Shown here: one piece after another, positions 24,960 to 60,881 of the stretch
How positions within the stretch are numbered: position 1 is the first letter of the stretch
Layout: each line of letters starts with the position of its first letter
From: Peptostreptococcaceae bacterium
Lineage (GTDB): Bacteria > Bacillota > Clostridia > Peptostreptococcales > BM714
Direction of reading: 5' to 3'
DNA length: 64,000 bases
NCBI GenBank assembly: GCA_016649995.1
Contig: JAENWJ010000003.1
Span: 349-64,348, forward strand
Notes under the pieces: model-generated
The model's database searches: none
What the model saw: only the letters and a program-made list of their open reading frames with translations
What the model was told of the DNA's origin: nothing
Program-made: the position numbers and the translations under genes

Positions 24960-25075
24960 TACCGTCTGTTCCTCATCTTCCAGATTCAATCTGTAGGATT
25001 TGGCACCGCGTATTTCTACCGGTTGCCGGGCTTCGTAGGGCCTATTCCCTCCACCACTCTTGATAAGGTATCAAG
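24960..25075 (-). promoter_or_regulatory. SAM-I (S-box) riboswitch
   Basis: The minus strand reads CTTATCAAGAGTGGTGGAGGGAATAGGCCCTACGAAGCCCGGCAACCGGTAGAAATACGCGGTGCCAAATCCTACAGATTGAATCTGGAAGATGAGG. This matches the conserved S-box core directly upstream of metK. Confidence 0.95.
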
Positions 25076-39252: not shown

Positions 39253-39618
39253 ATGTATAATACAGCGAACGCATACAGAGTTTACGAAACCAATAATGTA
39301 ACCACGGCCTCGCCTAAAAGGCTGATAATTATGCTTTGTGACGGAGCCATCCGCTTATGCAAATTGTCGGAAATAGCAATCAGGGAAAAGAATATTGAAA
39401 AGAAAAATGAGTACCTTAAGAGGGCTCAAGCCATCCTGGGTGAGCTTTCGTTTACTTTGAATTTCGATGCCGGTGAAATAGCCAATCAATTGAGTGATCT
39501 GTATGCTTTTATGATGCGGGAGCTGGTATACGCCAATATAAAAATGGACGCGGAAAAGGTCAAGAGTGTTCGTGAGCTTCTTGAGGAATTGAGGGAAGCG
39601 TGGTCGGAGATTGTTTGA
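39253..39618 (+). CDS. fliS: Flagellin chaperone FliS
   Basis: YRVYETNNVTTASPKRLIIMLCDGAIRLCK...LSDLYAFMMRELVYANIKMD. Confidence 0.9.
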   Translation: MYNTANAYRVYETNNVTTASPKRLIIMLCDGAIRLCKLSEIAIREKNIEKKNEYLKRAQAILGELSFTLNFDAGEIANQLSDLYAFMMRELVYANIKMDAEKVKSVRELLEELREAWSEIV

Positions 39619-39634
39619 CGAGGGGGAACGAGTA

Positions 39635-40096
39635 ATGGAGCAACTGAAATTTTTGATTGGTAATTTGAAGGCTCAAACAAAGAAGTACGAGGCTTTGAAA
39701 CCGGCAATGGTCAAGGACGGGAAATCGGCGGAAGATATCTTGGAAATTCTCAAGAATAGTCAGGATATCATAGATGATATCAGCCAGCTTGCCAAAGAAA
39801 GGCGAAGGTTGGAGTACCACCTGGCTGGTTCCTTGGGACTGGAAAAGTTTGATAGAAAAGTCCTGGAGAATCGAGTGCCGGAAAATCTGCTTAAGGCTTT
39901 TGACGAGGCTGTGGCTGATTTGACGAGGGAGCTTAAAGCCATGGTTCATTGTCAGAGAGACAACATACAAGTCATTATGAAGGGAAAAGCCGATGTTGTC
40001 GAGATGTTGTCGGAAACTTCCAAGGGAAAGAAAAACTTAAAGACATATTATGTAAAGGACAGGGAGGCTTGCTTCATCGATAAAAAGTCGGAATGA
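39635..40096 (+). CDS. Hypothetical helical protein (FliT/FlgN-like position)
   Basis: 153 aa from the ATG at 39635 (SD AGGGGGAA). The call rests on context only. Confidence 0.35.
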   Translation: MEQLKFLIGNLKAQTKKYEALKPAMVKDGKSAEDILEILKNSQDIIDDISQLAKERRRLEYHLAGSLGLEKFDRKVLENRVPENLLKAFDEAVADLTRELKAMVHCQRDNIQVIMKGKADVVEMLSETSKGKKNLKTYYVKDREACFIDKKSE

Positions 40097-40349
40097 ACCG
40101 ACTTATAAAAATATTCAAGTAATTTAAATATATTTATAAAGCATTCAGGCGTTGGAATTACAAGTGAATACAGTGAAAATACAGATTGCACACAGTGTAA
40201 AAAGCAGGTTGCCATAAAAAGGACTTGCTTTTTCTATTTCTATCAGTTATCCTTGACTTTGAGCATAAGGAATAAGAATTTTATATAATTCATAATAATA
40301 AATTCAGGTGTATTGTCATTGAAATTCGATCTGATAGGAAGTGACTGAA

Positions 40350-40768: not shown

Positions 40769-41203
40769 TTGAAATTATTCGATTCACTGGCTATCAGCGC
40801 TAGCGGGTTGACGGCCGAGCGGCTGAGGATGGATGTTATAGCCGCCAATATAGCCAATGCCAATACGACTCGCACAGAGGAAGGCGGTCCATACAGAAGA
40901 AAAGTGGCAGTTTTTCGAGAAAAACTACAGACTGAACTCAATAGGGATGTTTTTAAGGGAGACTGTCCGGGAACTGGCGTAGAAGCGGTTGGAATTGAAG
41001 AGGATCAAAGCCCTTTCAAACGGGTTTACGACCCTAGCCACCCCGACGCCGACGAGGATGGGTATGTGGAATTGCCAAATGTCAATCTTCTCAATGAAAT
41101 GGTAGACATGATTGCGGCCACTAGAGCTTATGAAGCAAATATTACAATCCTTAATTCAAGCAAGGCTATGTATGCTAAGGCTCTTGAAATAGGCAAAGGC
41201 TAA
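40769..41203 (+). CDS. flgC: Flagellar basal-body rod protein FlgC
   Basis: [36 protein letters not shown]...[25 protein letters not shown]. Confidence 0.95.
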
Positions 41204-41221: not shown

Positions 41222-41509
41222 ATGAGAATAGAATCTTTACTTAATGTGGGAATTGTTTCGGGTGACAAGTCTTTAGGCGCCGACAAGGCAACATCTTTTT
41301 CGGAGACTATGAGAAAGCAATTGGAAGAGGTCAATGAGCTACAGATACAATCCGAAAAAAACTCTGAAGCTTTGGCTCTTGGCGAAACTGATGACATACA
41401 CAATGTTTTAATACAGGGCGAAGAGGCAAGATTGGCACTTGAAATGACTGTTCAGGTAAGGAATAAAGTCATCGAAGCCTACCAGGAAATCATGAAAATG
41501 CAAATTTAA
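41222..41509 (+). CDS. fliE: Flagellar hook-basal body protein FliE
   Basis: 95 aa. C-terminal LALEMTVQVRNKVIEAYQEIMKMQI. Confidence 0.9.
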   Translation: MRIESLLNVGIVSGDKSLGADKATSFSETMRKQLEEVNELQIQSEKNSEALALGETDDIHNVLIQGEEARLALEMTVQVRNKVIEAYQEIMKMQI

Positions 41510-41600
41510 TAGTTTTGGAAAGGGCAAACCAATTGAAAAATTGGGACGCAAAGTAATCGGGTCTACGGCGGTAAACGCTATGGCAGCCGGACTATAACCT
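41509..41600 (+). promoter_or_regulatory. c-di-GMP-I (GEMM-I) riboswitch aptamer
   Basis: AUAGUUUUGGAAAGGGCAAACCAAUUGAAAAAUUGGGACGCAAAGUAAUCGGGUCUACGGCGGUAAACGCUAUGGCAGCCGGACUAU. It carries GGCAAACC-stem-GAAA tetraloop-stem-GGGACGCAAAG, a second hairpin with a UAUGG receptor-like bulge, AGCCGG, and P1 pairing of AUAGU (41509-41513) with ACUAU (41591-41595). Confidence 0.85.
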
Positions 41601-41611
41601 GACAGAATACA

Positions 41612-41642
41612 GGGGAGCCTTTTATAATAGGGCTTTTTTTTG
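41612..41642 (+). terminator. Candidate riboswitch-controlled terminator
   Basis: A weak stem GGAGCC...GGCUUU is followed by an 8-nt U tract (41634-41641), about 60 nt upstream of fliF. Confidence 0.5.
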
Positions 41643-41700
41643 TGTGCTCATGTATGCCCGTCATAAGAGATAAAATAATAGAAAAAGGGAGCCATGGGAA

Positions 41701-43299
41701 ATGGAAAATCCGAAACAAATGGCTAACAGAGTGGATAAAATATGGAAAAATATGAGTAAAACCAAGCGATTAGGAGTTGCAGGATTGTGTTCTGCGTTTT
41801 TGATTGCATTGGTCGCCTATTACATATTTTTTGGACAGGTGAATTATGTACCTATCTTTCCAAACCTCGAAATGAACGATTCGGCCGACATCATCAAGAA
41901 ACTCGATGAAATGAAAATAAGCGATTATAGGATTGAGGATGAAGGCATGACCATATTGGTGCCGGAATCACAGGTGGGACGTTTACGTATCGATCTTGCA
42001 ATGGATGGGTTATTGCCTAAAAGCAGTAAGGGTTTTGAAATTTTTGACGATACAGGGTTCGCAGTCACTGACGAGGACCGCAAAATCATGTATCAGAGGG
42101 CTTTGGAGGGAGAATTGGCCCGTTCGGTCATGTCTTTGGAGGAAGTGGAGTATGCCAGGGTACATCTGGCCCTTTCGGAAGAATCGGTTTTTACCCGGGA
42201 GGCAAAACCGGGGAGTGCCACGGTGGTACTCAAGATTAATTCCCTCAATAGACTGGAGCCACAGCATATACGGGGCATTATTGCCTTGGTTTCGGGAGCG
42301 GTTAGAAATGTTCCAGAAGGGAATGTTCGGGTTATAGATACTAATGCCAATCTTCTTAGCGAAGGAATTTTTATGGACGAGTCAGAAATGTCGGCAACCG
42401 CCCTGGTCAACAGCCATCTTGCTATGGAGGCGGCATTTGAAAGTGATCTCGAGGTGGGGATTCAGAATATGTTGGAGCAGACTTTGGGGGTTGGAAATGT
42501 TCTTGTCAAAATCAATGCAGATATGGATTTTGATTCAGAGGAGACAACCATTGTCGAATATGATGATGAAAAGGTTTTAAGGAGCCAGCAGGACCGATTG
42601 GAGCGTTCCGACAGTCTAAATGCTACGGCAGGTTCGAGTCCTGTGGATAATAATCTGGAATATTATATAGAAAACCCGGATGCTGTTGCCGAAGACGGCA
42701 ATGTCAGCAACTTCGAGACGACTCGCAATTATGAAATAGGGGAGACACGGATGCATCGGATAAAGGCGCCAGGGGAGGTTCGACGGATTTCGACCTCTGT
42801 AGTTTACAATGGAACTCTTTCGCAAGATAAAGGTACGGCTATTCGTAACCTTATCGTGGCTGCTGTGGGATATGACGAGAGCAGAGGGGACCTCATCAGC
42901 GTGGAAGGAATGGCATTCGACAAAACTTATCAGAATCAATTGATTGCGGAAATGGAAGTGCAACAGGCGACAACCTTTGAGATAGAGCAGAAAAGGCAAA
43001 AATATCTGCTCTATGGCGGCATCGCCGGTGGTTTTTTGTTTTTGATTCTTTTGGCCGTAATGGTGTTGATTCTACGAAAGGGCCAAAAAGGGACCCGCTT
43101 TAGAGAAAGGCTCGATATGAACATAGGGCAACCCTTGCCGCTTGAGAATGTAATGGATAATGTCATAGAGGAGGCCACTGTGAGAATGGAATCCATGGAA
43201 GACGGGGAACTTGAAAAAAGTGTCAAGATGTATGCCGATGAACATCCGGAAAAGCTGGCGGAATTGGTGAAGACTTGGGTTTTGAAGGATGAGGTGTGA
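41701..43299 (+). CDS. fliF: Flagellar MS-ring protein FliF
   Basis: 532 aa with N- and C-terminal TM segments. YQRALEGELARSVMSLEEVEYARVHLAL motif. Confidence 0.95.
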   Translation: MENPKQMANRVDKIWKNMSKTKRLGVAGLCSAFLIALVAYYIFFGQVNYVPIFPNLEMNDSADIIKKLDEMKISDYRIEDEGMTILVPESQVGRLRIDLAMDGLLPKSSKGFEIFDDTGFAVTDEDRKIMYQRALEGELARSVMSLEEVEYARVHLALSEESVFTREAKPGSATVVLKINSLNRLEPQHIRGIIALVSGAVRNVPEGNVRVIDTNANLLSEGIFMDESEMSATALVNSHLAMEAAFESDLEVGIQNMLEQTLGVGNVLVKINADMDFDSEETTIVEYDDEKVLRSQQDRLERSDSLNATAGSSPVDNNLEYYIENPDAVAEDGNVSNFETTRNYEIGETRMHRIKAPGEVRRISTSVVYNGTLSQDKGTAIRNLIVAAVGYDESRGDLISVEGMAFDKTYQNQLIAEMEVQQATTFEIEQKRQKYLLYGGIAGGFLFLILLAVMVLILRKGQKGTRFRERLDMNIGQPLPLENVMDNVIEEATVRMESMEDGELEKSVKMYADEHPEKLAELVKTWVLKDEV

Positions 43300-43305
43300 T
43301 GAAAG

Positions 43306-44328
43306 GTGAATAAACTAACTGAATTAGAGGAATTGAACGGGGTGGAAAAAGCAGCAGTTTTGTTCATATCTTTGGGCTCGGAAAAATCCTCCAAAATTCT
43401 AAAGATGCTTCCGGAACCGATGATCGAGAAAATCACATACGGAATAGCCAATATAACCAGCGTGGAACCCAAAGTCAGAGATAGCATACTCCTGGAATTC
43501 GTGGAAATGAACAAGGCAAGGGAGCATATCCGCCAGGGCGGCATTGATTACGCCAGGGACATTCTGACCCGTGCTCTGGGAAATAAGCGGGCTCAGAATA
43601 TTATTGATAATTTGAGTCCGGTGGCCATGAATAAAAAGCCTTTTTCCATAGCTCGCGAAACAGACCCCATGCAAGTACTAAAGACTATCGTGAACGAGCA
43701 TCCTCAGACCATAGCTTTAATAATGTGTTTTCTGGAGCCTGAGAATTCGGCGCGCATTCTTTCAGAACTGCCTGATGAAGTTAAATCGGATGTGGCCTAC
43801 CGTATCGCGACTATGAACAAGACATCCCCTACGGTCATCATGCGGGTGGAGAAAATCCTCGATGGCAAGCTATCCAATGTGAAAGACAACCAATTTGAAT
43901 CCTACGGGGGAATCAAGACCATAGTGGACATCCTTAACTCAGCCGACCGATCTACCGAGAAGAATATCATCGAGGAAATGGCTAAGGAAAATCCGAAACT
44001 AGTCGAGGAAATAAAGGACGGCATGTTTGTTTTCGAAGATATCATCAGTCTTGATAGCGCATCCATTCAGAGAATGCTTAGAGAAATTGACGGCGCAGAC
44101 CTTGCTCTTTCAATCAAAGGAGCCTCTAGGGATATGGCTGAAATTATATACAAGAATCTCTCCAAGAGGGCGGTCGAAGTCCTCAAGGATGACGTCGAGT
44201 TTCTCGGACCGGTACGCCTTGTTTCCGTGGAAGAAGCCCAGCATAAAATTGTGGCGGTCATAAGAAGACTGGATGAGGCTGGAGAAATATACATGAATAG
44301 GGGGGGCGAGGATGCAATCATCTCATAA
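43306..44328 (+). CDS. fliG: Flagellar motor switch protein FliG
   Basis: GVEKAAVLFISLGSEKSSKILKML... and MFVFEDI motifs. GTG start. Confidence 0.95.
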   Translation: MNKLTELEELNGVEKAAVLFISLGSEKSSKILKMLPEPMIEKITYGIANITSVEPKVRDSILLEFVEMNKAREHIRQGGIDYARDILTRALGNKRAQNIIDNLSPVAMNKKPFSIARETDPMQVLKTIVNEHPQTIALIMCFLEPENSARILSELPDEVKSDVAYRIATMNKTSPTVIMRVEKILDGKLSNVKDNQFESYGGIKTIVDILNSADRSTEKNIIEEMAKENPKLVEEIKDGMFVFEDIISLDSASIQRMLREIDGADLALSIKGASRDMAEIIYKNLSKRAVEVLKDDVEFLGPVRLVSVEEAQHKIVAVIRRLDEAGEIYMNRGGEDAIIS

Positions 44329-45079
44329 GATATACAAAAATCGGCAAATGGATGACAGTCGAGGAATATGCCCCATACCAGTCAAAGAAAATCCGGTAGG
44401 CATCAGGGAATATTCCTTTGACGGACAGGCTGATTCCCTGATTCGTCAGACTAAACAACGGGCTGACGAACTGCTTAGGATGGCGGAGCAGGAAAGCAAG
44501 GAAATTATTTCCGCGGCAGAAGATGAAGCGTTGGAAGCTGTGGAGGAAGAGAAAAGAAAAGGCTATGAAACCGGATACAAAACCGGAGCTGAAGAAGGGT
44601 ACGGGGAAGGATGCGAAGTCGGCCGGCAAGAAGTTTTGAAGGAAAGTCAAAAAAAAATTGATGAGGCCGGAAAGATACTGAAAACAGCCCACAAGGAATC
44701 ACGTGCATATATACAAAAAACGGAAAACGAAATTATAGGCTTGGCTGTAAAAATTGCGGAAACAATCATTAAAAAAGAACTCGAATTGGACGATAGTATT
44801 ATTGTGGGGATTGCAAAGGATGCTTTGGCAGAAGTCCGGAGTATGAGCCAAATAGTGATTCGGACCGGAAAGCAGGAAGCGGTGATAATTCAGAATAATT
44901 TGACAGAACTCCAGGAACTATGTCCAAACGGCGTGTTCACGATTCTAAGGGATGAAACGGTACAGGCGGGAGGCTGTTTCATCGAAACGGACATTAACAT
45001 CATCGATGCCACCGTAGACAAGAAACTGGAGAATGTCAAACGGGTTCTTATGGAAACGGGGCAAAGGCATGGAAAATAG
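44312..45079 (+). CDS. fliH: Flagellar assembly protein FliH
   Basis: 255 aa with an E/K-rich central helix and a C-terminal domain. It lies between fliG and fliI. Confidence 0.8.
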   Translation: MQSSHKIYKNRQMDDSRGICPIPVKENPVGIREYSFDGQADSLIRQTKQRADELLRMAEQESKEIISAAEDEALEAVEEEKRKGYETGYKTGAEEGYGEGCEVGRQEVLKESQKKIDEAGKILKTAHKESRAYIQKTENEIIGLAVKIAETIIKKELELDDSIIVGIAKDALAEVRSMSQIVIRTGKQEAVIIQNNLTELQELCPNGVFTILRDETVQAGGCFIETDINIIDATVDKKLENVKRVLMETGQRHGK

Positions 45080-46382
45080 CCGACACTTCGATTTGTACCA
45101 CAAGGCACTATCGGGTAAGTCATTTTATCAAAAAATCGGGAAGGTAACTCAAGTCATAGGTTTGACCATACAGGTTGAGGGAGTCAAAAGTTTTGTAGGA
45201 GAGGTCTGCCGCATTGAAATTGACGACCATAAGCATGTATTAGCGGAAGTAGTGGGCTTCAAAAACGAAAAAGTGCTGCTGATGCCTCTAGGGGATATCA
45301 GTGGGATTGGTCCAGGTTGCAGGGTGGTTTCCACGGGCAAGTCCCTGCAGATAAAGGTTGGAGAAAATCTTTTGGGAAAAGTTCTTGACGGATTAGGAGA
45401 ACCTATCGATAAGGAATACTTGTATTTGGATAAGGAAGTAGACATCTATAGGAATCCTCCCAATCCATTGAAGCGCAAATCCATTAAAATGCCAATGTGC
45501 ACCGGCATAAGGGCGATTGACGGGTTGTTGACTTGCGGAGAAGGTCAGAGGCTAGGCATTTTCGCCGGTAGCGGAGTAGGCAAGAGCATTCTTTTAGGCA
45601 AAATCGCAAGATCCTCTAATGCCGATGTCAATGTCATTGCTCTAATAGGAGAACGAAACCGAGAATTGCGCAATGTTTTGGACAAGGACCTGGGAGAGGA
45701 TGGACTCAAGAAATCGGTTGTGATTTGCGCAACTTCGGATCAACCCGCTCTCGTCCGATTAAAGGGGGCTTTCACTGCTACAGCCATTGCCGAGTATTAC
45801 AGGGACCAAGGACTGAAGGTCATGTTCATGATGGATTCAGTTACGCGTTTTGCAATGGCGCAGAGAGAAGTGGGCCTGGCTATTGGGGAACCGCCCACTA
45901 CCAAAGGATACACTCCTTCGGTTTTCGCACTTTTACCTAAATTGCTGGAGCGGACCGGAATGGCTGAAAAGGGTTCCATTACAGCTTTTTATACAGTTCT
46001 GGTTGACGGTGACGACATGAATGAGCCCATTGCGGATGCAGTCCGGGGTATTTTGGATGGACATATTGTTCTGTCGAGGAAATTGGCGGCAAAGAATCAT
46101 TTTCCTGCCATTGATGTGCAGGAAAGTATCAGCCGCCTTATGAAGCAGATAGTGGACAAAGATTATTATGAGATGGCCGGTAGAATCCGTGACAGCCTTA
46201 CAGTTTATGAAAAAGCTGAAGATTTGATTAATGTTGGGGCCTATGTCAAAGGATCAAACCCCAAGATTGATAGAGCTATAGCTCTGAACGATAAATTGAT
46301 AGAGTTTCTTCAACAGGAAGTAGAAGAAGAGTCTTCCATGAAAGAAACCTTGGACGCCATGAAACTTTTGTTCATAAAGTAG
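45069..46382 (+). CDS. fliI: Flagellum-specific ATPase FliI
   Basis: Walker A GIFAGSGVGKS and Walker B VMFMMDSVTRFA. Start is the ATG at 45069 (MENSRH); 45033 is an alternative. Confidence 0.95.
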   Translation: MENSRHFDLYHKALSGKSFYQKIGKVTQVIGLTIQVEGVKSFVGEVCRIEIDDHKHVLAEVVGFKNEKVLLMPLGDISGIGPGCRVVSTGKSLQIKVGENLLGKVLDGLGEPIDKEYLYLDKEVDIYRNPPNPLKRKSIKMPMCTGIRAIDGLLTCGEGQRLGIFAGSGVGKSILLGKIARSSNADVNVIALIGERNRELRNVLDKDLGEDGLKKSVVICATSDQPALVRLKGAFTATAIAEYYRDQGLKVMFMMDSVTRFAMAQREVGLAIGEPPTTKGYTPSVFALLPKLLERTGMAEKGSITAFYTVLVDGDDMNEPIADAVRGILDGHIVLSRKLAAKNHFPAIDVQESISRLMKQIVDKDYYEMAGRIRDSLTVYEKAEDLINVGAYVKGSNPKIDRAIALNDKLIEFLQQEVEEESSMKETLDAMKLLFIK

Positions 46383-46394
46383 GGGAGGATTGAA

Positions 46395-46838
46395 ATGAAG
46401 GGATTCGACTATACATTGGAGAATGTGCTCAAACTTAGGATTCAAACCGAGGTTGAGCGTCTCTCTGAATTTTCGAGTGCTCAGCGAAATTACAACGAGC
46501 ATATGGAGTCCGTTGTAAAAATTGAGTCGGAAATCGATGGCATCATCGATTCTTTTCAAAAAGCGAAACCGACCCAGGTAGCATCTAGGAAGCATTACTA
46601 TTTTTATCTTGAGAATCTCCGGTTTAAGAAAGGACAACAGAATGATCTTTTGCATGAAGCTGGAAAGTTTTGCGAACGGAAACGTCAGGCTTTTGAAAAG
46701 GCTCAAATAAAGCGCAAGACAATCGAAAGCCATCGGGAAAAGCAATTGGACGTTTATAAGCTGGGGGAAAAGAAGAAAGAGGAGTGTATACTCGATGAAA
46801 TGGCTGTAATCGCCTTCAAAAGGAGGCTTGAATTATAG
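46395..46838 (+). CDS. fliJ: Flagellar export protein FliJ
   Basis: 147-aa coiled-coil protein immediately after fliI. Confidence 0.8.
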   Translation: MKGFDYTLENVLKLRIQTEVERLSEFSSAQRNYNEHMESVVKIESEIDGIIDSFQKAKPTQVASRKHYYFYLENLRFKKGQQNDLLHEAGKFCERKRQAFEKAQIKRKTIESHREKQLDVYKLGEKKKEECILDEMAVIAFKRRLEL

Positions 46839-46866
46839 AAAGTCAAAGCAAATAGGAGGTGAATAT

Positions 46867-48330
46867 ATGGAATGCGCAATAAAATTGAATATAGGCAAAA
46901 AGGCGGAATTTACGCTGAGCACCGGGAAGGCAGGCAAGACTGATATAGGTGAATCCGTAGGAAAAGGTGAAAGATTCGAGGCTTTGATGCGCAGGTTTAT
47001 GAGTGTAGACGGCAAGAACGTCGAAACCCAAGTACCGACGCACAAGGTATTGCCGGAAAAAGACATGTTGTCTGCATTGGCTGGTGTCCAGATGGAGATG
47101 AAGGTGATTATTGAAGCCGTAGAGATTGAGGATGTTACTGCGGGGAAGGAACTTTCGGAAGCTGATTTTGATAAAGGGAAAAAGACGGTCGGCAAAGTCT
47201 GTCTTGATAATCTTGGCAGATTTCCTGAGATACCGCGAGAATTCATTAAAGAAACCGGAATGATGCAGGATGTCAATTTGAAATCCGAATCAGAGAGGCT
47301 GAATGATGAGGCAGTCGCCCAGCCCCTTGAAGCAGGAAGAGGCAGTGAAATTACCGACAGGACTGCTGGTGAATGGTTGCAAAATCCGGGAGCTGAATCT
47401 GTTGCAGTGGCAGGGACTTTCTATGCTGAGCAAGGATTGCCTGATATCGTTTCCGAAAAGCGAACGGTAGACAAGAATGCAATGTTTTCACCGTCTGCGG
47501 GGGTACAGGAAAATATACAGGGATTGGAATCAAAGCAACCGAAAAATCTTGAAACTATCGCGATGAACGAAGACGAAAAAAGATTTTTACATTCCGCTAG
47601 GAGGCAGAGCGTTTTGAACCGCTTGCCTGAAATGCAAAAGCAAGGACAAGAAGAAACCGGCACATTGCAAACAGGGAAAGGCGCGCTCGTGGAAACCGGC
47701 GAAATGAAGAACACCGCAAAACCCGAACTGAAGAACACCGCAAAACCCGAACTGAAGAACACCGCAAAACCCGAACTGAAGAACGGAATTTCAGAGCAGG
47801 CTGCTAAAATGGTCGAGGGTGTACCTGCTATTGATACAAAAATTGCCGGATTGGAAACAGTCAAGGCGGAGACGGTTGATGCTGCGAGAGCAATTACAAA
47901 TTTCGAGGAAATCGGTGAGAAGATTGAGTTTGGAATGAACAAAGCCCGTGAAAATGGAGAAACCGTAATGAGGGTGCGATTGAAGCCGGAGGAATTGGGC
48001 AGGATAGAAATTAAACTGACGAACGAGGACGGCGCGGTGAAGGCTCGGATTTTTGTGGAAAACGAAGGCGTCAAAGAACAATTGAAAAATTTTCTCATGG
48101 ATGATAGGGCTTTTTCGAGGCAAAACGGTCTACGACTGAAAGAAATAGAAGTGAGTGTTTTCAATCAACAAACAGGCAATTCGGAGGAATTCGGACAAAG
48201 AGCTTTCGATTTTCAGAGAGAGGCCCGTCAAGATGATTTTACGGATGATTTTCGGGAAGAACGCAATGATTTGTTGTGGCAAACTGAAGAAGGGCGAGGC
48301 GCACAAAAGGGATTGGATTTATTCGCTTAG
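46867..48330 (+). CDS. fliK: Flagellar hook-length control protein FliK
   Basis: C-terminal FliK domain MRVRLKPEELGRIEIKLTNEDGAVKARIFVENEGVKEQL. ATG at 46867 after SD AGGAGGTG. Confidence 0.85.
   Translation: MECAIKLNIGKKAEFTLSTGKAGKTDIGESVGKGERFEALMRRFMSVDGKNVETQVPTHKVLPEKDMLSALAGVQMEMKVIIEAVEIEDVTAGKELSEADFDKGKKTVGKVCLDNLGRFPEIPREFIKETGMMQDVNLKSESERLNDEAVAQPLEAGRGSEITDRTAGEWLQNPGAESVAVAGTFYAEQGLPDIVSEKRTVDKNAMFSPSAGVQENIQGLESKQPKNLETIAMNEDEKRFLHSARRQSVLNRLPEMQKQGQEETGTLQTGKGALVETGEMKNTAKPELKNTAKPELKNTAKPELKNGISEQAAKMVEGVPAIDTKIAGLETVKAETVDAARAITNFEEIGEKIEFGMNKARENGETVMRVRLKPEELGRIEIKLTNEDGAVKARIFVENEGVKEQLKNFLMDDRAFSRQNGLRLKEIEVSVFNQQTGNSEEFGQRAFDFQREARQDDFTDDFREERNDLLWQTEEGRGAQKGLDLFA
47707..47784 (+). 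repeat. In-frame 24-nt tandem repeat x3.25 within fliK
   Basis: AAGAACACCGCAAAACCCGAACTG is repeated perfectly three times and encodes (KNTAKPEL)3. Confidence 0.95.
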
Positions 48331-48338
48331 GAGGTGAA

Positions 48339-48833
48339 ATGATGGAAGTAAGCAACGTAAGCAGCTATGTGGATGCATCGCAAAGTAGCAGTAGCGGACA
48401 GAAACTCGGTAAAAATGAATTTTTTCAGATTCTTGCTGCACAGCTTCAGTTTCAGGATCCCATGGAAGGTGGGGATAATTCGGAATATGTGGCCCAATTG
48501 GCGCAGTTTTCTGCCCTTGAGCAGATGGAGAATTTAAATTTAGCCATTGCAGATTTGAAAAACAATCAGAACCTGCTTTTTGGAAGTCAGATGATAGGAA
48601 AGACTGTAGAGGTTGTGGGAGAAAATGAGATAGTCAAGGGAGAAGTCCAATCGGTCAGGGTTCGCGAATCGGGACTCTATATCGTAGTGGGGGACCAGGA
48701 ATATGTGGCGGAGGACATACTGAACATGACTTTAACACCGGATGAACAGGTGCAGCAGATCATTGAAGGAATGGAGCATATTGGCCAGGTCTTGGATCAA
48801 GCCTTTGCACCGGAACCTCAAGTTGTTATCTAA
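48339..48833 (+). CDS. flgD: Flagellar hook capping protein FlgD
   Basis: LGKNEFFQILAAQLQFQDPMEGGDNSEYVAQLAQFSALEQMENL. Confidence 0.9.
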   Translation: MMEVSNVSSYVDASQSSSSGQKLGKNEFFQILAAQLQFQDPMEGGDNSEYVAQLAQFSALEQMENLNLAIADLKNNQNLLFGSQMIGKTVEVVGENEIVKGEVQSVRVRESGLYIVVGDQEYVAEDILNMTLTPDEQVQQIIEGMEHIGQVLDQAFAPEPQVVI

Positions 48834-48854
48834 ATGCTTTAAGGAAGTGATTAA

Positions 48855-49253
48855 ATGGCTTACAGAGTGAATAATGGAATGCTTTATCCGGTTGACCGAC
48901 CAGGGAAAAGCAAGAATAACGGCACTGACAAAGCAAACCGCGGTGACGGGAACTTCAGGCAGATTCTTAATAAGACATTAGATAATAAGTCGGAGCTGAA
49001 AGTTTCAGCACACGCACTCAGACGACTGGAACAGAGGAATTTAAGGCTTACGGAGAACGACATGAGGAATCTTGAAAAGGCAGTTGACAAGGCTGAAGCC
49101 AAGGGGGCAAAAGAATCATTGCTTCTTTACAAGGAAATGGCTTTTGTAGCAAGCATCCACAACCGTACAATAATTACGGCAGTGGGGCAGAAAGATGCAA
49201 AGGAAAACGTTTTTACAAACATAGACAGTGCAGTCATCATCGACGAAGATTGA
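48855..49253 (+). CDS. Flagellar operon protein (family usually found between flgD and flgE in Firmicutes)
   Basis: 132 aa. KVSAHALRRLEQRNLRLTENDMRNLEKAVDKAEAKGAKESLLLYKEMAFVASIHNRTIITA pattern. Confidence 0.6.
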   Translation: MAYRVNNGMLYPVDRPGKSKNNGTDKANRGDGNFRQILNKTLDNKSELKVSAHALRRLEQRNLRLTENDMRNLEKAVDKAEAKGAKESLLLYKEMAFVASIHNRTIITAVGQKDAKENVFTNIDSAVIIDED

Positions 49254-49338
49254 CAGGCCGGACCTCCAAGAGGAAGCCTGGCGCCGCGGATTGAATGAAG
49301 CGGCGCACATCTTCAAAACACAAGGGAGGAATTTTAAT

Positions 49339-50259
49339 ATGTTAAGATCACTTTATGCAGGCGTAAGTGGAATGAGAAGCAATCAGGTAAAGATGGATGT
49401 AATAGGCAACAATATCGCAAACGTAAACACAACGGCATTCAAGTCGGGGCGAGCAAGGTTTCAGGATCTTTTCAGCCAGACTCTTGCAAACGCGCAGATG
49501 CCTTCCGATACAGGCCTGGGCGGAATAAACCCCAAGCAGGTTGGCCTTGGAGTTGGAGTTGCGGCGATTGACACGGTAATGAGCGGAGGCTCTCTTAAGC
49601 CTACGGGAAGAGAACTCGACTTCGCAATCGAAGGGGAAGGTTTCTTTGTGGTATCTCGGGATAGTGCAGGAGACATGAAGCGCTACACGCGCGACGGAGC
49701 CTTCTTCACCGACTACGAGGGTAATTTGGTTAATGCTGAGGGACTTCGCGTGCTTGGGTATGCTGCCGACGGATTGACTGGAAGCGTCGGGGCGTATGAT
49801 CACACTGGCACAACCGTCATCACCAGCCCAAGCGATTCCACACAAAGCGATCTGCTGGTGTCCATATGCATTCCAAATGAAATGACCGTTGGGGCGAACA
49901 CCGTCAGCTTGGAGACCTTTTCCATAGACGGTTCAGGATTGATACAAGGCATATACAGTGATGGAGAGGTATACTCATTGGGACAAATAGGCATTGGCAA
50001 ATTCAAAAATCCGGGAGGGCTTGACAAGCTGGGAGGAAATACATACCGGGATACACGAAATTCGGGGGAAGTTGAAGTCGGAGTGGCTAACGAAAACGGC
50101 TTCGGAGCAATAAGGCCGGGAGTATTGGAAATGTCGAATGTGGACCTTGCCAATGAATTCACCGAGATGATAATCACCAGCCGGGCCTATCAGGCTAATG
50201 CGAAGACGATTTCGACCTCGGATGAAATGCTTCAGGAATTGATCAACCTCAAGCGATAA
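49339..50259 (+). CDS. flgE: Flagellar hook protein FlgE
   Basis: [35 protein letters not shown]... and C-terminal LANEFTEMIITSRAYQANAKTIS. ATG at 49339 after SD AAGGGAGGA. The track start at 49228 was rejected. Confidence 0.9.
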   Translation: MLRSLYAGVSGMRSNQVKMDVIGNNIANVNTTAFKSGRARFQDLFSQTLANAQMPSDTGLGGINPKQVGLGVGVAAIDTVMSGGSLKPTGRELDFAIEGEGFFVVSRDSAGDMKRYTRDGAFFTDYEGNLVNAEGLRVLGYAADGLTGSVGAYDHTGTTVITSPSDSTQSDLLVSICIPNEMTVGANTVSLETFSIDGSGLIQGIYSDGEVYSLGQIGIGKFKNPGGLDKLGGNTYRDTRNSGEVEVGVANENGFGAIRPGVLEMSNVDLANEFTEMIITSRAYQANAKTISTSDEMLQELINLKR

Positions 50260-50261
50260 TT

Positions 50262-50345
50262 GGGAAGTGGAAAGATTAAAGATTAAAGATTAAAGATTAA
50301 AGATATCAGGAAAAGATGTAAAAAATAAAGTGGGAAATGGAAAAA
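50262..50345 (+). repeat. Heptamer array (GGGAAGT GGAAAG, ATTAAAG x4, then degenerate A-rich units)
   Basis: Read directly. It starts 3 nt after the flgE stop. Confidence 0.9.
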
Positions 50346-50397
50346 CAAATAAAAATCATAAGCCGGCTAAAATTTAATTCGAGTCGGTAGGAAGTCA

Positions 50398-50424
50398 GGG
50401 GCGGGCGCATAGAATGCCCGCCCC
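50398..50424 (+). other. GC-rich 9-bp hairpin without a U tract, just upstream of the flbD SD
   Basis: GGGGCGGGC-gcatagaat-GCCCGCCCC. Confidence 0.7.
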
Positions 50425-50444
50425 GATAAAGGAGTTGTTTTCAA

Positions 50445-50633
50445 GTGGTAAGACTGACTTCATTAAAGGGTGAACCTTTTTATCTCAATGCAGAACTGAT
50501 TGAAAAAATTGAGGAAATCCCTGATACTCTAATTACCTTGACAAGCGGCAAGAAAATCAGGGTAAGTCAAAAGGCGCTGGAAGTAGTGGAGAGCGTCATA
50601 GCCTACCGCAGAAAAATAAATGGCGGGCTTTAG
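50445..50633 (+). CDS. flbD: Flagellar protein FlbD
   Basis: (M)VRLTSLKGEPFYLNAELIEKIEEIPDTLITLTSGKKIRVSQ. Confidence 0.9.
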   Translation: MVRLTSLKGEPFYLNAELIEKIEEIPDTLITLTSGKKIRVSQKALEVVESVIAYRRKINGGL

Positions 50634-50644
50634 GAGGCTAAAGA

Positions 50645-51448
50645 ATGAAAAAAATCGATATTTTTCCATTGCTGGCCATATTTATAGGAACCACGATGAT
50701 TATAATAGCTATTTCAACGCAGGGAAATATTATGGTATTCTGGAGTCTTTCATCTCTGGTTATAACCGTTTTAGGTTCATTCTGCGCACTCATGGCTAGC
50801 TATCCTATAAAAGTGCTATTGGGTGTTCCCAAGATTTTAAAGCAGGCATTCATATCTAATATGGACAATCGCAGCAATTTAGTTGTTTTGTTCGCAAATC
50901 TTTCACGCAAGGCACGTTCGGAGGGTCTATTATCGATAGAGGAAGAAGTGGAGAAAATAGAAAACGAATTTCTCATCAGGGGCTTGCGGATGGTAGTGGA
51001 CGGAATTGAGCCGGAGAACATCAAGTCTATTTTGGGTCTTGAAATCGCTACAATTGAAAGACGTCATGGTGTTGGACATAATATTTTCAAGTCATGGGGG
51101 GAGTTAGCCCCGGCTTTTGGCATGATTGGTACTCTCATCGGCCTTGTTATCATGTTGAGCGACCTTAACGACGCCAGTGCCATCGGGGTAGGCATGGCCA
51201 CGGCGTTGATAACCACTTTCTATGGAGCTTTTTTTGCCAACATGTTACTTATTCCTGTCGCCACCAAGTTGCAAAGTCAGACCGAAGAGGAAATTTTTAC
51301 CAGAGAAATGATGATTGAAGGGATTTTGTCTATTCAGTCGGGAACAAACCCGAAAATTGTTGAAGAAAAATTGACTACTTACTTATCGCCATATGAAAGA
51401 AAGAAGGACCGGGAGGAGGAAGCTGTGGTGATAAAAAATGCCTCTTAG
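50645..51448 (+). CDS. motA: Flagellar stator protein MotA
   Basis: 267 aa, four TM segments. PAFGMIGTLIGLV...ALITTFYGAFFAN. Confidence 0.9.
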   Translation: MKKIDIFPLLAIFIGTTMIIIAISTQGNIMVFWSLSSLVITVLGSFCALMASYPIKVLLGVPKILKQAFISNMDNRSNLVVLFANLSRKARSEGLLSIEEEVEKIENEFLIRGLRMVVDGIEPENIKSILGLEIATIERRHGVGHNIFKSWGELAPAFGMIGTLIGLVIMLSDLNDASAIGVGMATALITTFYGAFFANMLLIPVATKLQSQTEEEIFTREMMIEGILSIQSGTNPKIVEEKLTTYLSPYERKKDREEEAVVIKNAS

Positions 51449-52169
51449 AAGAAAAAAACAGGATGATGGCAGAGGTTCTCCATCTTGGATGACTACTTTT
51501 TCAGATCTCATGACACTTTTGCTGACTTTTTTTATCCTGCTATACTCAATGTCGACTATCGACGTCTTTAAATTCGAGAATGTGGCTAGCGCTTTGCAAA
51601 GTGTTCTGATTGGCGAGGCCAAACCGACAATTTTCTCCGACGACATTCCGCCGGGCAATGTTCCGATTAATGATCTTTTGCCTATTGAACAAACCCAGAT
51701 TGAAGAGATGAACACGGAACTGGTACAGCTCTACCAATTGGTGAATGAATATGTTAAAAGAGAGGGTCTCCAAGCTGAGATATCTGTAAGGGCTGATCGG
51801 AGAGGAGTTATTATAGACATCAAGGAGAAGGTGCTTTTCGATTCAGGAGCGGCCGTATTGAAGGGAAATAGCAAGGAGGTACTTGATAAGGTTGTGATGC
51901 TAATAGAACAATTTGACAATAAAATAATCGTCGAGGGACATACGGATACAGTGCCGATAAATACGGCCAAGTTCCCTAGCAACTGGGAACTTTCGGTAAT
52001 CAGAGCCATAAACGTACTGAGGTATTTTACCGAAGAAAAGGATATAGATCCTGTACGAATATCTGTAGCCGGATACGGAAAATACAAACCCATTTCAACC
52101 AATGACAACACCTTGGGTAGAGCCATGAACCGTCGGGTGAATATTTTGATTTTGGTAGAAACGGAATAG
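51438..52169 (+). CDS. motB: Flagellar stator protein MotB (OmpA-like C-terminal domain)
   Basis: WMTTFSDLMTLLLTFFILLYSMS with the conserved Asp, and a C-terminal VEGHTDTVPI...NWELSVIRA...NRRVNI. Confidence 0.9.
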   Translation: MPLRRKKQDDGRGSPSWMTTFSDLMTLLLTFFILLYSMSTIDVFKFENVASALQSVLIGEAKPTIFSDDIPPGNVPINDLLPIEQTQIEEMNTELVQLYQLVNEYVKREGLQAEISVRADRRGVIIDIKEKVLFDSGAAVLKGNSKEVLDKVVMLIEQFDNKIIVEGHTDTVPINTAKFPSNWELSVIRAINVLRYFTEEKDIDPVRISVAGYGKYKPISTNDNTLGRAMNRRVNILILVETE

Positions 52170-52176
52170 GAGGAAA

Positions 52177-52665
52177 TTGAAATTGACAGATAATGCAAAT
52201 AGTAAGGGCAACGCTCACGATGACAAAAATCCTAAGAAGAAAGTAAAAACACTAATCATAATTGCGGTTCTCGTTTTAGCTTTGGCAGCCGCTTCGTTTT
52301 TTGCATATGCCTACTTCACAAAGACCTTTATTTTCAATGAGGACTCCAAGGTTGCACCTGTGGCGGAAGTTGTTTATCCCTTGGGCGAATTCGTTATAAA
52401 TCTGAACGATTCCAACAACAGAAGCTATTTGAAGACTCAGATAGCCGTAGGGTATGCAAACAAAAAAGACGAGATTTTTATAAAGGATAAAAAGTTTCAA
52501 ATCCGGGATATAATTATACAAACTCTTCGCTCGAAGACTGCGGAGGATATAAGGGCAGTCGAAAAGACGGATGAATTAAAGGTAGAGATTATGAACAAAT
52601 TAAATGAACTTTTCGAGCCGGAACTGATTTTGGAAGTCTATATTGTCGATATTTTGATTCAGTGA
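52177..52665 (+). CDS. fliL: Flagellar basal body-associated protein FliL
   Basis: Single N-terminal TM segment. YPLGEFVINLNDSNNRSYLKTQIAVGY. TTG start at 52177 or 52183. Confidence 0.85.
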   Translation: MKLTDNANSKGNAHDDKNPKKKVKTLIIIAVLVLALAAASFFAYAYFTKTFIFNEDSKVAPVAEVVYPLGEFVINLNDSNNRSYLKTQIAVGYANKKDEIFIKDKKFQIRDIIIQTLRSKTAEDIRAVEKTDELKVEIMNKLNELFEPELILEVYIVDILIQ

Positions 52666-52690
52666 TTTAAAAAGAGAAGAGGACAGCAAT

Positions 52691-53053
52691 ATGGGAAATA
52701 TGAATTTTACTCAAAGCCTTATTAAATTGTTCATAGCCTTTCCGGTGGTAATCATGGTCGCTTATTTCAGCCTCAGGTTGGGGAATCGATATCTGAAAAG
52801 AATGGGAAATACGAGGAATCTCGAGGTTATTGAGACTGTTCCGATTTATAACAAGGCGGTTCTGAGCATTGTCCGCATATTTGACGCCTACTATGTGTTG
52901 GGCGTTACGGAGCACGGGGTTGAAACAATCCGCGAGTTGTCGGATACGGAAATCGATGCCTTCCTCAGAAATGGTTTTTCCAATGGAAGGAGTTTCGTGG
53001 GGAAACTGAAAAGTTTCAAATGGAAAGAGAAAGTGAAGGATGGCTATGAATAG
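52691..53053 (+). CDS. fliO: Flagellar biosynthesis protein FliO/FliZ
   Basis: 120 aa, one TM segment. Pattern LEVIETVPIYNKAVLSIVRIFDAYYVLGVTEHGV. Confidence 0.75.
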   Translation: MGNMNFTQSLIKLFIAFPVVIMVAYFSLRLGNRYLKRMGNTRNLEVIETVPIYNKAVLSIVRIFDAYYVLGVTEHGVETIRELSDTEIDAFLRNGFSNGRSFVGKLKSFKWKEKVKDGYE

Positions 53054-53807
53054 GAAACTGGCATTTTTAATACTGGCGATTATTATCATCGTTTTCATGG
53101 GCAATGTGTCCTTCGCAGAGGAAGTGGATTTGCCGATTCCAAGAATCGGCATCAATGTCGACGAGGCAGAAACACCGGACGATTATGTCGATGGCATCAA
53201 AATATTGATTATGTTGACCGTACTGACACTTGTGCCTTCGTTTTTAGTTCTAATGACGTCTTTTACGAGGATTATCATTGTGCTTTCTTTCCTTAGAAGT
53301 GCCATGGCCACCCAGCAGACGCCTCCTAATCAGATATTAATCGGATTGGCGCTTTTCTTGACATTTTTTCTTATGGCGCCGGTTTACACGGAGGTCATCG
53401 AAGATGCGGTGAATCCTTACTTGACAAATGAAATTTCGCAGGAGGAAGCCATCGACATAGGTTCAAAGCCAATCAAGAATTTTATGCTTAATCAGACCAG
53501 AGAAAAGGATCTGGCTCTTTTTATAAATCTGTCGGGTGACGAATTTCCTGAAACCAGCATAGAAACGTCTTTCATGGCAGTGATTCCGGCTTTTATTATC
53601 AGTGAGCTAAAAACCGCATTCCAGATGGGCTTCATGCTATTTATACCATTCATCGTCATAGATTTAATCGTGGCAAGCATACTTATGTCAATGGGCATGT
53701 TCATGCTGCCGCCGGTAATGATATCGCTTCCGTTTAAACTTTTACTTTTTGTAATGGTGGACGGGTGGTATCTAGTTGTGAAATCCATTATGGAAAGTTT
53801 TATTTAG
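53046..53807 (+). CDS. fliP: Flagellar export apparatus protein FliP
   Basis: LTVLTLVPSFLVLMTSFTRIIIVLSFLRSAMATQQTPPNQILIGLALFLTFF. Start is the ATG at 53046 (or 53040). Confidence 0.95.
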   Translation: MNRKLAFLILAIIIIVFMGNVSFAEEVDLPIPRIGINVDEAETPDDYVDGIKILIMLTVLTLVPSFLVLMTSFTRIIIVLSFLRSAMATQQTPPNQILIGLALFLTFFLMAPVYTEVIEDAVNPYLTNEISQEEAIDIGSKPIKNFMLNQTREKDLALFINLSGDEFPETSIETSFMAVIPAFIISELKTAFQMGFMLFIPFIVIDLIVASILMSMGMFMLPPVMISLPFKLLLFVMVDGWYLVVKSIMESFI

Positions 53808-53819
53808 GGGGGATGTATC

Positions 53820-54089
53820 ATGACTCAGTCAATGGTTGGCGATATCATGAGAGATGCGTTGACAACCGTGCTACTTACAGCCGGTCCCGTTTTAATGGCG
53901 GCGCTGCTTGTCGGACTTATTGTTAGTATATTTCAAGCTACAACACAGATTCAGGAGCAAACTCTCACTTTTGTACCCAAAATTGTAGCTGTGTTCTTCA
54001 CAATTATGATTACAGGACCATATATGTTGAGTAAATTGACGGATTTTACGACGCAAATGTTCACTAACATTGCCACCATGATCAGGTAG
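53820..54089 (+). CDS. fliQ: Flagellar export apparatus protein FliQ
   Basis: 89 aa. LLVGLIVSIFQATTQIQEQTLTFVPKI. Confidence 0.95.
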   Translation: MTQSMVGDIMRDALTTVLLTAGPVLMAALLVGLIVSIFQATTQIQEQTLTFVPKIVAVFFTIMITGPYMLSKLTDFTTQMFTNIATMIR

Positions 54090-54096
54090 GTGTTCC

Positions 54097-54882
54097 ATGA
54101 CAATTTATAATTTTACGGTTTATTTTCTTATTTTAGCAAGAATTGCCAGCTTCATGGGAACGTCACTGATTTTTTCAGTTCGAGGACTTCCGAATTTGTT
54201 GAAGGTCGGTTTTGCGGTAATACTTAGTATTTTGCTATATCCGATAGCTCATGCAGATGTCTTTGTGGAACCAACGTTGATAGGCTATGTATTGCAGGTG
54301 GTTTTTGAAGTGATCTTTGGACTGGCTCTCGGTTTTACGACCAACATTATTTTTATTGCAATGCAGATGGGCGGGCAGCTGATTGATTTTCAAATAGGGT
54401 TTTCAATGGCTTCGGTATATGACCCGTTGACTAAGAACAAGGTATCACTTTACGGCCGGTTGTATTACTGGATGGGGCTGGCATTGTTTTTCGCTGTGGA
54501 TGCCCATCATTATCTTGTTTATGTCATGGCTAGAATGTTTGAAATTTTGCCGGTAGGAGGAGTTGTAACGGAGCATTTGAAGGCTGCAGATGTCATTTTT
54601 CTTTTTACATCGAGCTTTCGTACGGCTTTTCAGATTGCAGTGCCGTTGCTGCTTATACTCTTCATGACGGATGTCATTATGGGTATGCTTGCTAGGACGG
54701 TACCACAGCTTAATGTGTTTATTTTGGGATTGCCACTTAAGGTTCTTATAGGGGTGTCGGCTTCGATTTTGCTTATGCCGTCAATCATCCGAATGATGAT
54801 TCCGGTAATTGAAAGCATTCCCTTTCAATTGGAAAAACTGATGGAGGTGCTTGCGGTTTTATATATGGGAGGTTGGAGTTGA
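54097..54882 (+). CDS. fliR: Flagellar export apparatus protein FliR
   Basis: 261-aa polytopic protein. Position and size fit. Confidence 0.9.
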   Translation: MTIYNFTVYFLILARIASFMGTSLIFSVRGLPNLLKVGFAVILSILLYPIAHADVFVEPTLIGYVLQVVFEVIFGLALGFTTNIIFIAMQMGGQLIDFQIGFSMASVYDPLTKNKVSLYGRLYYWMGLALFFAVDAHHYLVYVMARMFEILPVGGVVTEHLKAADVIFLFTSSFRTAFQIAVPLLLILFMTDVIMGMLARTVPQLNVFILGLPLKVLIGVSASILLMPSIIRMMIPVIESIPFQLEKLMEVLAVLYMGGWS

Positions 54883-54886
54883 TCTG

Positions 54887-60157: not shown

Positions 60158-60172
60158 GGATGGTATGAATCG

Positions 60173-60868: not shown

Positions 60869-60881
60869 TGAGGTGTTGATT

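Follow-up and report, generated by a model that had tools for sequence, protein, structure and literature searches.

A class I cyclic di-GMP (c-di-GMP) riboswitch aptamer lies between fliE and fliF, inside the flagellar operon of a Peptostreptococcaceae bacterium. The window analysed here, by which we mean the whole stretch of 64,000 nucleotides (nt), covers positions 349 to 64,348 of the forward strand of contig JAENWJ010000003.1 (assembly GCA_016649995.1). We regard it as virtually certain that the aptamer is real and under selection, and folding models together with analogy to a known flagellar switch make it probable that it belongs to a functional class I c-di-GMP riboswitch that would gate read-through into fliF as a transcriptional OFF switch. 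The aptamer class and its control of flagellar genes are already known from Cd1 of Clostridioides difficile. What is new is (i) the conserved position within the operon, (ii) an expression platform unlike that of relatives with the aptamer upstream of flgB and (iii) the split of the operon that would result, into an uncontrolled flgB-flgC-fliE part and a controlled part running from fliF to sigD.

A scan of the whole window with cmscan against Rfam 15 at gathering thresholds reports two riboswitches, of the c-di-GMP-I and S-adenosylmethionine (SAM) families. The first is a match to RF01051 (c-di-GMP-I, GEMM-I) at 41513–41599 on the + strand that begins 4 nt 3′ of the fliE stop codon (TAA, 41507–41509), spans model positions 1–87 of 87 and scores 65.4 bits (gathering score 35; E = 1.5e-10). 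A sequence-only reading of this DNA had called a GEMM-I aptamer here; the score, well above the family threshold, and the covariation described below bear that call out. A permissive Rfam search of positions 35000–64000 returned no other RNA family at E <= 0.1. The parts of the aptamer, and the linker at its 3′ side, are as follows.

41529–41544, + strand: first hairpin of the aptamer, with the GAAA loop (41535–41538) in CCAAUU-GAAA-AAUUGG
G41524–C41549 and C41525–G41548, + strand: junction pairs, from the Rfam alignment
41552–41593, + strand: second hairpin of the aptamer, carrying the UAUGG receptor strand, with AGU (41552–41554) and ACU (41591–41593) at its base
41598–41613, + strand: linker with the conserved ACCUGA(C), which includes the C92 equivalent, from alignments and constrained folds

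The GNRA tetraloop of the first hairpin and the tetraloop receptor in the second are both present, the UCUACG ... CUAUGG strands of the latter fitting the model columns CUAAg ... uAuGa on inspection of the alignment. The linker holds a probable P1 3′ strand (41599–41608, opposite 41512–41522) and an alternative small hairpin, CCUG/CAGG. A different P1, AUAGU (41509–41513) with ACUAU (41591–41595), had been proposed from sequence alone and is rejected, since the Rfam alignment assigns ACU 41591–41593 to the foot of the second hairpin, paired with AGU 41552–41554, and the suggested pairing is not retained in four relatives (loci L003–L006). This error leaves the conclusion drawn from the aptamer unaffected.

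We aligned 10 orthologous aptamers and scored them against the Rfam-derived structure. Standard pairs fill 96.5% of the cells of the aptamer helices, compensatory double changes occur in 13 of the 21 pairs, none of 500 shuffles scores as high and slid controls are only 22–43% paired. Because these changes keep the helices across relatives with FliF proteins only 47–70% identical, the aptamer appears to be maintained by selection.

In Vc2, the class I archetype from Vibrio cholerae, the ligand is contacted by G20, A47 and C92, with an additional interhelical C44–G83 pair (PMC4744006). We mapped these residues onto the window by the conserved 27-nt spacing between G20 and A47 and by the consensus of RF03167, the GGC variant of the family, in which the name-giving G stands in place of the first A after GACGC. 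The inferred equivalents of G20 (G41523), A47 (A41550), C44 (C41547) and G83 (G41586) are exactly in place. The C92 equivalent, C41598, lies inside the conserved ACC motif, shifted by a 3-nt insertion (AUA, 41594–41596) between the second hairpin and that motif. The contacts, interhelical pair, GAAA tetraloop with receptor and G20–A47 spacing of Vc2 have counterparts in the window RNA, that of C92 being displaced; the window RNA differs in the insertion and in its P1, and Vc2 resides in the 5′ leader of a proteobacterial gene. The insertion (AUA, AUU, UCA or GCU) is confined to the window and L003–L006, and is missing from L007–L011, L088 and all aptamers located upstream of flgB.

We also considered assignment of the window to the GGC variant itself (RF03167, with G at position 47 and the consensus GACGCGAA), and rejected it because the window reads GACGCAAAG and its best family is RF01051. 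Two relatives, L008 and L010, fit RF03167 slightly better than RF01051 (60 bits, gathering score 59), but position 47 is A in both and they are hence ordinary class I aptamers.

The insertion beside C92, peculiar to the window and its four nearest counterparts, raises the question of whether the aptamer prefers another cyclic dinucleotide, such as 3′3′-cyclic GMP-AMP (cGAMP), or has only weak affinity for c-di-GMP. In class I, specificity is known to shift with single substitutions at positions that contact the ligand, and Rfam includes a variant family, RF03167. Such a change in the window is nonetheless improbable: the window has G20, A47 and C92, as c-di-GMP binders do, the RF01051 score is far above threshold and even the two relatives that marginally favor RF03167 carry A at position 47. 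The G at position 20, which the window has, is reported to separate c-di-GMP binders from cGAMP binders. A further alternative would make the element a relic in decay or a constitutive, ligand-blind attenuator serving only to set the ratio of rod proteins to later products. The weakness of the window terminator (see below) and the plain terminator hairpin, with the aptamer absent, in the corresponding gap of two loci outside the clade (L017 and L018) would suit it. It is hard to reconcile, however, with the compensatory changes that keep all aptamer helices at 47–70% FliF identity and with ligand-contact bases that are invariant, and we consider it very improbable.

The genes on either side of the aptamer are all on the + strand of the window (NCBIfam and Pfam) and are listed below, together with the ribosome-binding site of fliF.

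40341 (or 40350)–40766, + strand: flgB (NCBIfam TIGR01396, 120 bits, above cut-off)
40769–41203, + strand: flgC (NCBIfam TIGR01395, 176 bits, above cut-off)
41222–41509, + strand: fliE (NCBIfam TIGR00205, 95.5 bits, above cut-off)
41687–41691, + strand: fliF ribosome-binding site GGGAG, read from the sequence, before the start codon ATG at 41701–41703 given by the open reading frame (ORF) list
41701–43299, + strand: fliF (NCBIfam, 255 bits)
41701–61619, + strand: fliF-to-sigD stretch, about 20 kb of motor, export and sigD genes (NCBIfam and Pfam)
60173–60868, + strand: ycgR-like PilZ gene, with PilZNR (PF12945) and PilZ (PF07238) domains
60873–61619, + strand: sigD, a FliA/WhiG-type sigma factor

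These matches place flgB, flgC and fliE upstream of the switch, with the same gene calls on a contig of the same species (L002), and fliF 191 nt downstream of fliE, in agreement with the sequence-only reading. The order 3′ of the switch is fliF, fliG, fliH, fliI, fliJ, fliK, flgD, a small flagellar gene, flgE, flbD, motA, motB, fliL, fliO, fliP, fliQ, fliR, flhB, flhA, flhF, flhG, the ycgR-like PilZ gene and sigD. The roughly 20 kb of downstream motor, export and sigD genes that had been proposed from the translations are recovered by NCBIfam and Pfam, as is the PilZ gene at 60173, which has both domains and whose translation retains the motifs RxxxR (RREDIR) and DxSxxG (DLSGQG).

Two important questions for an intra-operon switch are (i) whether its position is shared by related genomes and (ii) whether an expression platform can be identified between the aptamer and fliF. 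For the first, we compared the surroundings of fliF in 80 species-level genome loci and 80 metagenome loci. Wherever the contig is long enough, the genes follow the order flgB-flgC-fliE-fliF-fliG, and the fliE–fliF gap is 13–40 nt in most Bacillota. The window and 11 distinct relatives (nine species genomes, L003–L011, and two metagenome contigs, L088 and L119; FliF 47–70% identical) have instead a gap of 150–380 nt containing a c-di-GMP-I aptamer, which scores 51–80 bits with Rfam in L003–L011 and about 80–97 bits with a custom model, and in each of the 11 relatives a hairpin and U-run stand 45–100 nt before fliF. The aptamer starts 1–9 nt after the fliE stop codon in 8 of the 11 relatives, and 45 to about 217 nt after it in L011, L088/L119 and L007. 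Neither the Rfam searches (at the gathering score and at E <= 0.1) nor the custom model found a second aptamer upstream of flgB or elsewhere in the locus.

In other lineages, namely Tissierellales, Alkalibaculum, Paratissierella and Soehngenia genomes (L029, L033–L035, L038, L039, L045, L047, L049, L050 and L056) and several metagenome contigs, the aptamer is found 60–280 nt before flgB and the fliE–fliF gap is only 17–30 nt. These RNAs are of the same class as that of the window (45–65 bits with custom model R1) and precede an operon of the same synteny. In a neighbor-joining tree of FliF, the loci with the aptamer between fliE and fliF form one clade (the window and L003–L010) and a second, small one (L011 and L088), both nested in a larger group that is otherwise devoid of the aptamer; the loci with the aptamer upstream of flgB fall in other clades. 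The fliE–fliF site is thus kept within the window clade while other lineages use the 5′ side of flgB, and on this comparison of sequences the window layout is a lineage-specific relocation of a known switch. Its occurrence in two FliF clades reflects either two gains or a single gain followed by several losses.

Individual loci show local rearrangements. In L003 (3229–3316, identical in metagenome contig L083 at 2229–2316) the complete aptamer is preceded by a partial tandem duplication of the last ~50 nt of fliE and the first ~35 nt of the aptamer, and the truncated copy scores 29 bits in the custom-model search. The repeat is either genuine or an assembly error common to both records. L007 has, between fliE and the aptamer (3123–3338), an inverted-repeat element present twice, GACCUACCAACGAAC ... 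GUUCGGGUUAGGUC, that looks like a small mobile or repeated element inserted 5′ of the switch. Alkalibaculum sporogenes (L034) has tandem c-di-GMP-I aptamers 5′ of flgB, at 1432–1513 and 1625–1707 (55.8 and 54 bits with model R1).

The second question concerns the following elements.

41614–41641, + strand: intrinsic terminator, with stem 41614–41621/41629–41636, loop UUAUAAU and a U8 tract at 41634–41641
41519–41525, + strand: predicted 5′ strand of the antiterminator, AAAGGGC, covering G20 and the junction G–C pairs of the aptamer

The terminator stem, GGAGCCUU/AGGGCUUU, has three G–C, two A–U and three G–U pairs (−8.4 kcal/mol), and its U8 tract ends 59 nt before the fliF ATG, matching the earlier description of a weak stem and U8 tract about 60 nt before the gene. 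A hairpin and U-run of differing sequence occupy the equivalent place in all 11 relatives, and across seven sequences the terminator pairing fills 94.6% of cells, with a single compensatory change. The terminator arms share no bases with the aptamer, so a third element is needed to couple ligand binding to termination.

To approximate the moment of decision, we folded transcripts ending just before the terminator 3′ arm. In the truncated window transcript, 41519–41525 is predicted to pair with 41617–41623 (GCCUUUU) of the terminator 5′ arm, with probabilities of 0.81–0.83 for the five reported pairs (41521–41525 with 41617–41621). The equivalent pairs have probabilities of 0.95–1.0 in L003–L006 and 0.6–0.95 in L011, and inspection reveals the same complementarity in L088. 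Elsewhere in the clade the competitor differs. In L008 and L009 it would be the aptamer 3′ strand GAUGGCU (probability 0.9–1.0 in truncated folds); L010 has the same strands, but the pairing is absent from its truncated fold. The AAAACUGUG/CGCAGUUUU terminator of L007 faces competition from a strong hairpin containing the P1 3′ strand. Across seven sequences, 95.9% of cells retain the potential for antiterminator pairing, compared with 63–79% in slid controls. As the 5′ strand never varies, covariation cannot test the antiterminator and the shuffle control is uninformative.

Engagement of 41519–41525 in the antiterminator would exclude the ligand-bound aptamer because this strand carries G20 and both junction G–C pairs. 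All layouts in the clade therefore predict an OFF switch, with the terminator released once ligand is bound. In the full window leader the terminator fold is the more stable (−38.2 versus −33.6 kcal/mol for the antiterminator fold), which in these models fits a kinetically controlled switch; the minimum-energy fold of the whole leader has z = −1.65, uninformative alone. The predicted polarity also rests on analogy with Cd1 and with the flgB-upstream aptamers, where a P1 stem directly precedes a U-run. This arrangement, with the P1 3′ strand immediately before 6–9 U, is seen in the flgB leaders of L029, L034, L035, L038, L039, L045, L049, L050 and L056. Judged from these leaders, P1, once stabilized by the ligand, would itself be the terminator stem, an OFF design more compact than that of the window clade, with its separate downstream terminator and putative antiterminator.

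Both polarities have been described for class I c-di-GMP riboswitches, and the full-length minimum-energy fold of the window has the terminator even without ligand. An ON switch, in which c-di-GMP prevents termination and raises fliF expression, is nevertheless unlikely. The terminator arms (41614–41636) lie outside the aptamer, so the folded aptamer cannot sequester them, and the sole conserved competitor of the terminator is a strand used by the ligand-bound aptamer. Further, the competitor in L007–L010 is an aptamer or P1 3′ strand, the classical OFF layout. Repression of flagellar genes by c-di-GMP is also the logic of Cd1 (PMC6366702), and it agrees with the presence of a PilZ brake gene in the operon.

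Cd1 (Cdi-1-3) is a class I OFF riboswitch in the 5′ untranslated region of the flgB operon of C. difficile (PMC6366702), so that the contrast with this species drawn in the sequence-only reading is supported. It shares its aptamer class and operon type with the window, controlling an early flagellar operon of ~23 kb that includes sigD, and c-di-GMP causes premature termination and fewer flagella (PMC6366702); a like outcome is expected for the window. Cd1, however, is upstream of flgB and controls the whole operon, whereas the window switch follows fliE, and flgB, flgC and fliE would escape it.

We propose the following mechanism. Transcription would start 5′ of flgB and run through flgB, flgC and fliE into the aptamer. 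At low c-di-GMP, AAAGGGC (41519–41525) would pair with GCCUUUU (41617–41623), blocking the terminator, and polymerase would read on into fliF and ~20 kb of genes for the basal body, export and the motor, with PilZ and sigD. When c-di-GMP is high, the ligand would lock G41523 and the junction pairs into the folded aptamer, allowing hairpin 41614–41636 to form and transcription to stop at the U8 tract. The flgB-flgC-fliE mRNA would still be made, while FliF, the first assembly step, and sigD would be shut off. The PilZ brake protein, encoded in the gated part, would provide a second, post-translational c-di-GMP input.

This mechanism presumes a single transcription unit, on which the sequences 5′ of flgB bear.

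40204–40233, + strand: terminator-like hairpin 5′ of flgB, GCAGGU/ACUUGC followed by UUUUU, read from the sequence
40225–40253, + strand: candidate sigma-A promoter of the flgB operon (TTGCTT, 17 nt, TATCCT), read by inspection
41599–41628, + strand: sigma-70-like match (CTGACA, 18 nt, TATAAT; 11 of 12 matches) from a promoter scan, overlapping the linker and the terminator loop

The hairpin at 40204–40233 probably ends an upstream unit of late genes, which lie directly 5′ of flgB on the same strand (flagellin, fliD, flaG-like, fliS and a weak FlgN-like ORF by Pfam). The block AAAAAG..CTTG.TTTTT 5′ of flgB is invariant in the window and L003–L006, and the −10 element of the candidate promoter, within a conserved alignment block, reads TATCCT in the window and TAGAAT or TAAAAT in these relatives. 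A conserved hairpin and promoter-like block before flgB fits a unit that starts at this gene. Downstream, a terminator scan of the fliF-to-sigD stretch gave 12 terminator-like sites against a shuffle mean of 16.5, none with a long U-run, so that read-through at 41641 plausibly reaches sigD.

The match at 41599–41628 points to a different organization, in which transcription of fliF from an internal promoter would escape the switch in part or altogether. Two versions can be envisaged: (a) the CTGACA-18-TATAAT site fires and yields a fliF transcript lacking both aptamer and terminator, or (b) the 3′ end of fliE conceals a promoter, in which case the aptamer would be the true 5′ leader of an independent fliF operon and the terminator would also end the flgB-flgC-fliE unit. 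The site is the sole 11/12 match, and the best sigma-70-like site, in the ~24 kb scanned, L003 retains a partial version (CTGATG, 18 nt, TATAAG) and L011, L007 and L088, with the aptamer 45–217 nt after the fliE stop codon, have room in the gap. The −35-like CTGACA, however, owes its conservation to its place in the RNA, where it lies in the ACCUGAC linker and P1 strand, and the −10 box, which lies in the terminator loop, is not kept in L003–L006, reading CAACAG, CTGTAG and CTTTAG in L004–L006. For the second version, the promoter scan of the window otherwise found no promoter-like site in the fliE 3′ end or the gap. The aptamer starts so close to the fliE stop codon in 8 of 11 relatives (1–9 nt) that most members of the clade have no space for a promoter between them, and the upstream sequence is constrained by the FliE C-terminus, the conservation of which accounts for the similarity in the fliE 3′ end. 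Even in this version, fliF onward would still be under c-di-GMP control. Taking both versions together, we judge an internal promoter rather unlikely.

Several observations weigh against gating of fliF by this RNA as an OFF switch. A start from the 41599–41628 match would fall inside the U tract and bypass the switch. The terminator stem is weak (−8.4 kcal/mol, three G–U pairs) and was not called by a simple terminator scan, P1 is short, interrupted and not clearly kept in L004 and the 3-nt insertion beside the C92 motif may affect the binding pocket. The antiterminator 5′ strand coincides with the invariant aptamer core, and slid controls are still 63–79% paired. In addition, the source organism is an uncultured metagenome-assembled genome (MAG).

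Decisions between termination and antitermination within an operon have a precedent in Bacillus subtilis, where PyrR-dependent attenuators stand between pyrR and pyrP and between pyrP and pyrB. As in the window, a terminator/antiterminator choice between operon genes there separates proximal from distal expression. The pyr attenuators are controlled by a protein, whereas the decision in the window would rest with a ligand-binding RNA. Riboswitches are usually located at the 5′ end of transcription units (PMC9943018). In full-text literature, with incomplete coverage, we found no description of a c-di-GMP riboswitch between fliE and fliF or inside a flagellar operon, and no usable precedent for intercistronic riboswitches.

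The remaining features of the locus lie away from the fliE–fliF joint. The FlgN-like gene before flgB is a 161-aa ORF (39611–40096, + strand) with only a sub-threshold FlgN match (20 bits versus 30.5), and a 148-aa ORF after sigD (61616–62062, + strand) has no Pfam matches. The second riboswitch reported by Rfam, an S-box (SAM) element at 24970–25069 on the − strand (81 bits against a gathering score of 44.4), is directly 5′ of the SAM synthetase gene metK (23667–24872, − strand), an ordinary arrangement. Two short assemblies of the same species as the window exist, and this species was assembled from SRR13106732 and SRR13106734.

The joint itself is occupied by other elements in other lineages. 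In Proteiniclasticum spp., Alkalibacter mobilis, Clostridium sp. UBA699 and related MAGs (L019–L023, L025–L032, L041, L059, L060, L096, L097, L100, L105, L109, L125, L130 and L159), which fall in FliF clades other than that of the window, a gap of 160–300 nt contains a different structured element of 90–110 nt, (G/A)ACUGCUU ... AAGCAGUUUUUU, located for example at 3336–3426 in L023 and 3337–3426 in L060. A long-range helix, (G/A)ACUGCUU ... AAGCAGU followed by a U-run, encloses 70–90 nt, which in Proteiniclasticum include conserved GCUCGCUUCC, UGACGGAAUA and GGGAGCG. RNAalifold gives nine pairs for the outer helix, the seven outermost of which hold in 16/16 sequences, and ACUGC/GCAGU is almost invariant. 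Rfam 15 has no match for the element, the Proteiniclasticum gap giving only chance-level matches at E <= 10, and this may be an attenuator, as yet un-catalogued, in the corresponding place of the operon. In two Bacillota MAGs, MES13 and MES16 (L017 3347–3488 and L018 3335–3488), the gap holds a plain hairpin with a GGCC stem and a U-run, the aptamer being absent. The L017 gap starts AAAGGCAGAUUAC, a faint echo of the aptamer start, and could be a relic or an independent attenuator. The gaps of two metagenome contigs (L108 1034–1308 and L112 2219–2458) are filled by tandem simple repeats of the AATGCA(A/G) type in place of a structured element.

In Clostridia, attenuators thus seem to be placed preferentially at the fliE–fliF joint. 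We suggest, tentatively and as a possibility on the doubtful side, that this joint is a recurrent RNA checkpoint of the clostridial flagellar operon that different lineages have filled with unrelated elements. On that interpretation, the riboswitch of the window clade would uncouple rod-protein supply (flgB, flgC, fliE) from the decision to begin another basal body (fliF onward, with sigD), and the Proteiniclasticum-type element could be an attenuator of a new kind that responds to a ligand or a protein. Should both elements be signal-responsive, the choice of fliF over flgB as the gating point would be a selected design rather than a chance event in a single genome. The gap also merits attention for the element, absent from Rfam, that another clade has there.

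If c-di-GMP does gate read-through into fliF as proposed, one transcription unit would be converted into two parts under different regulation, a natural case of a riboswitch working between cistrons. The operon would also be a compact two-input system, in which an RNA switch acts on synthesis and a PilZ brake on function, and the point at which c-di-GMP controls the flagellar hierarchy would vary among related lineages.

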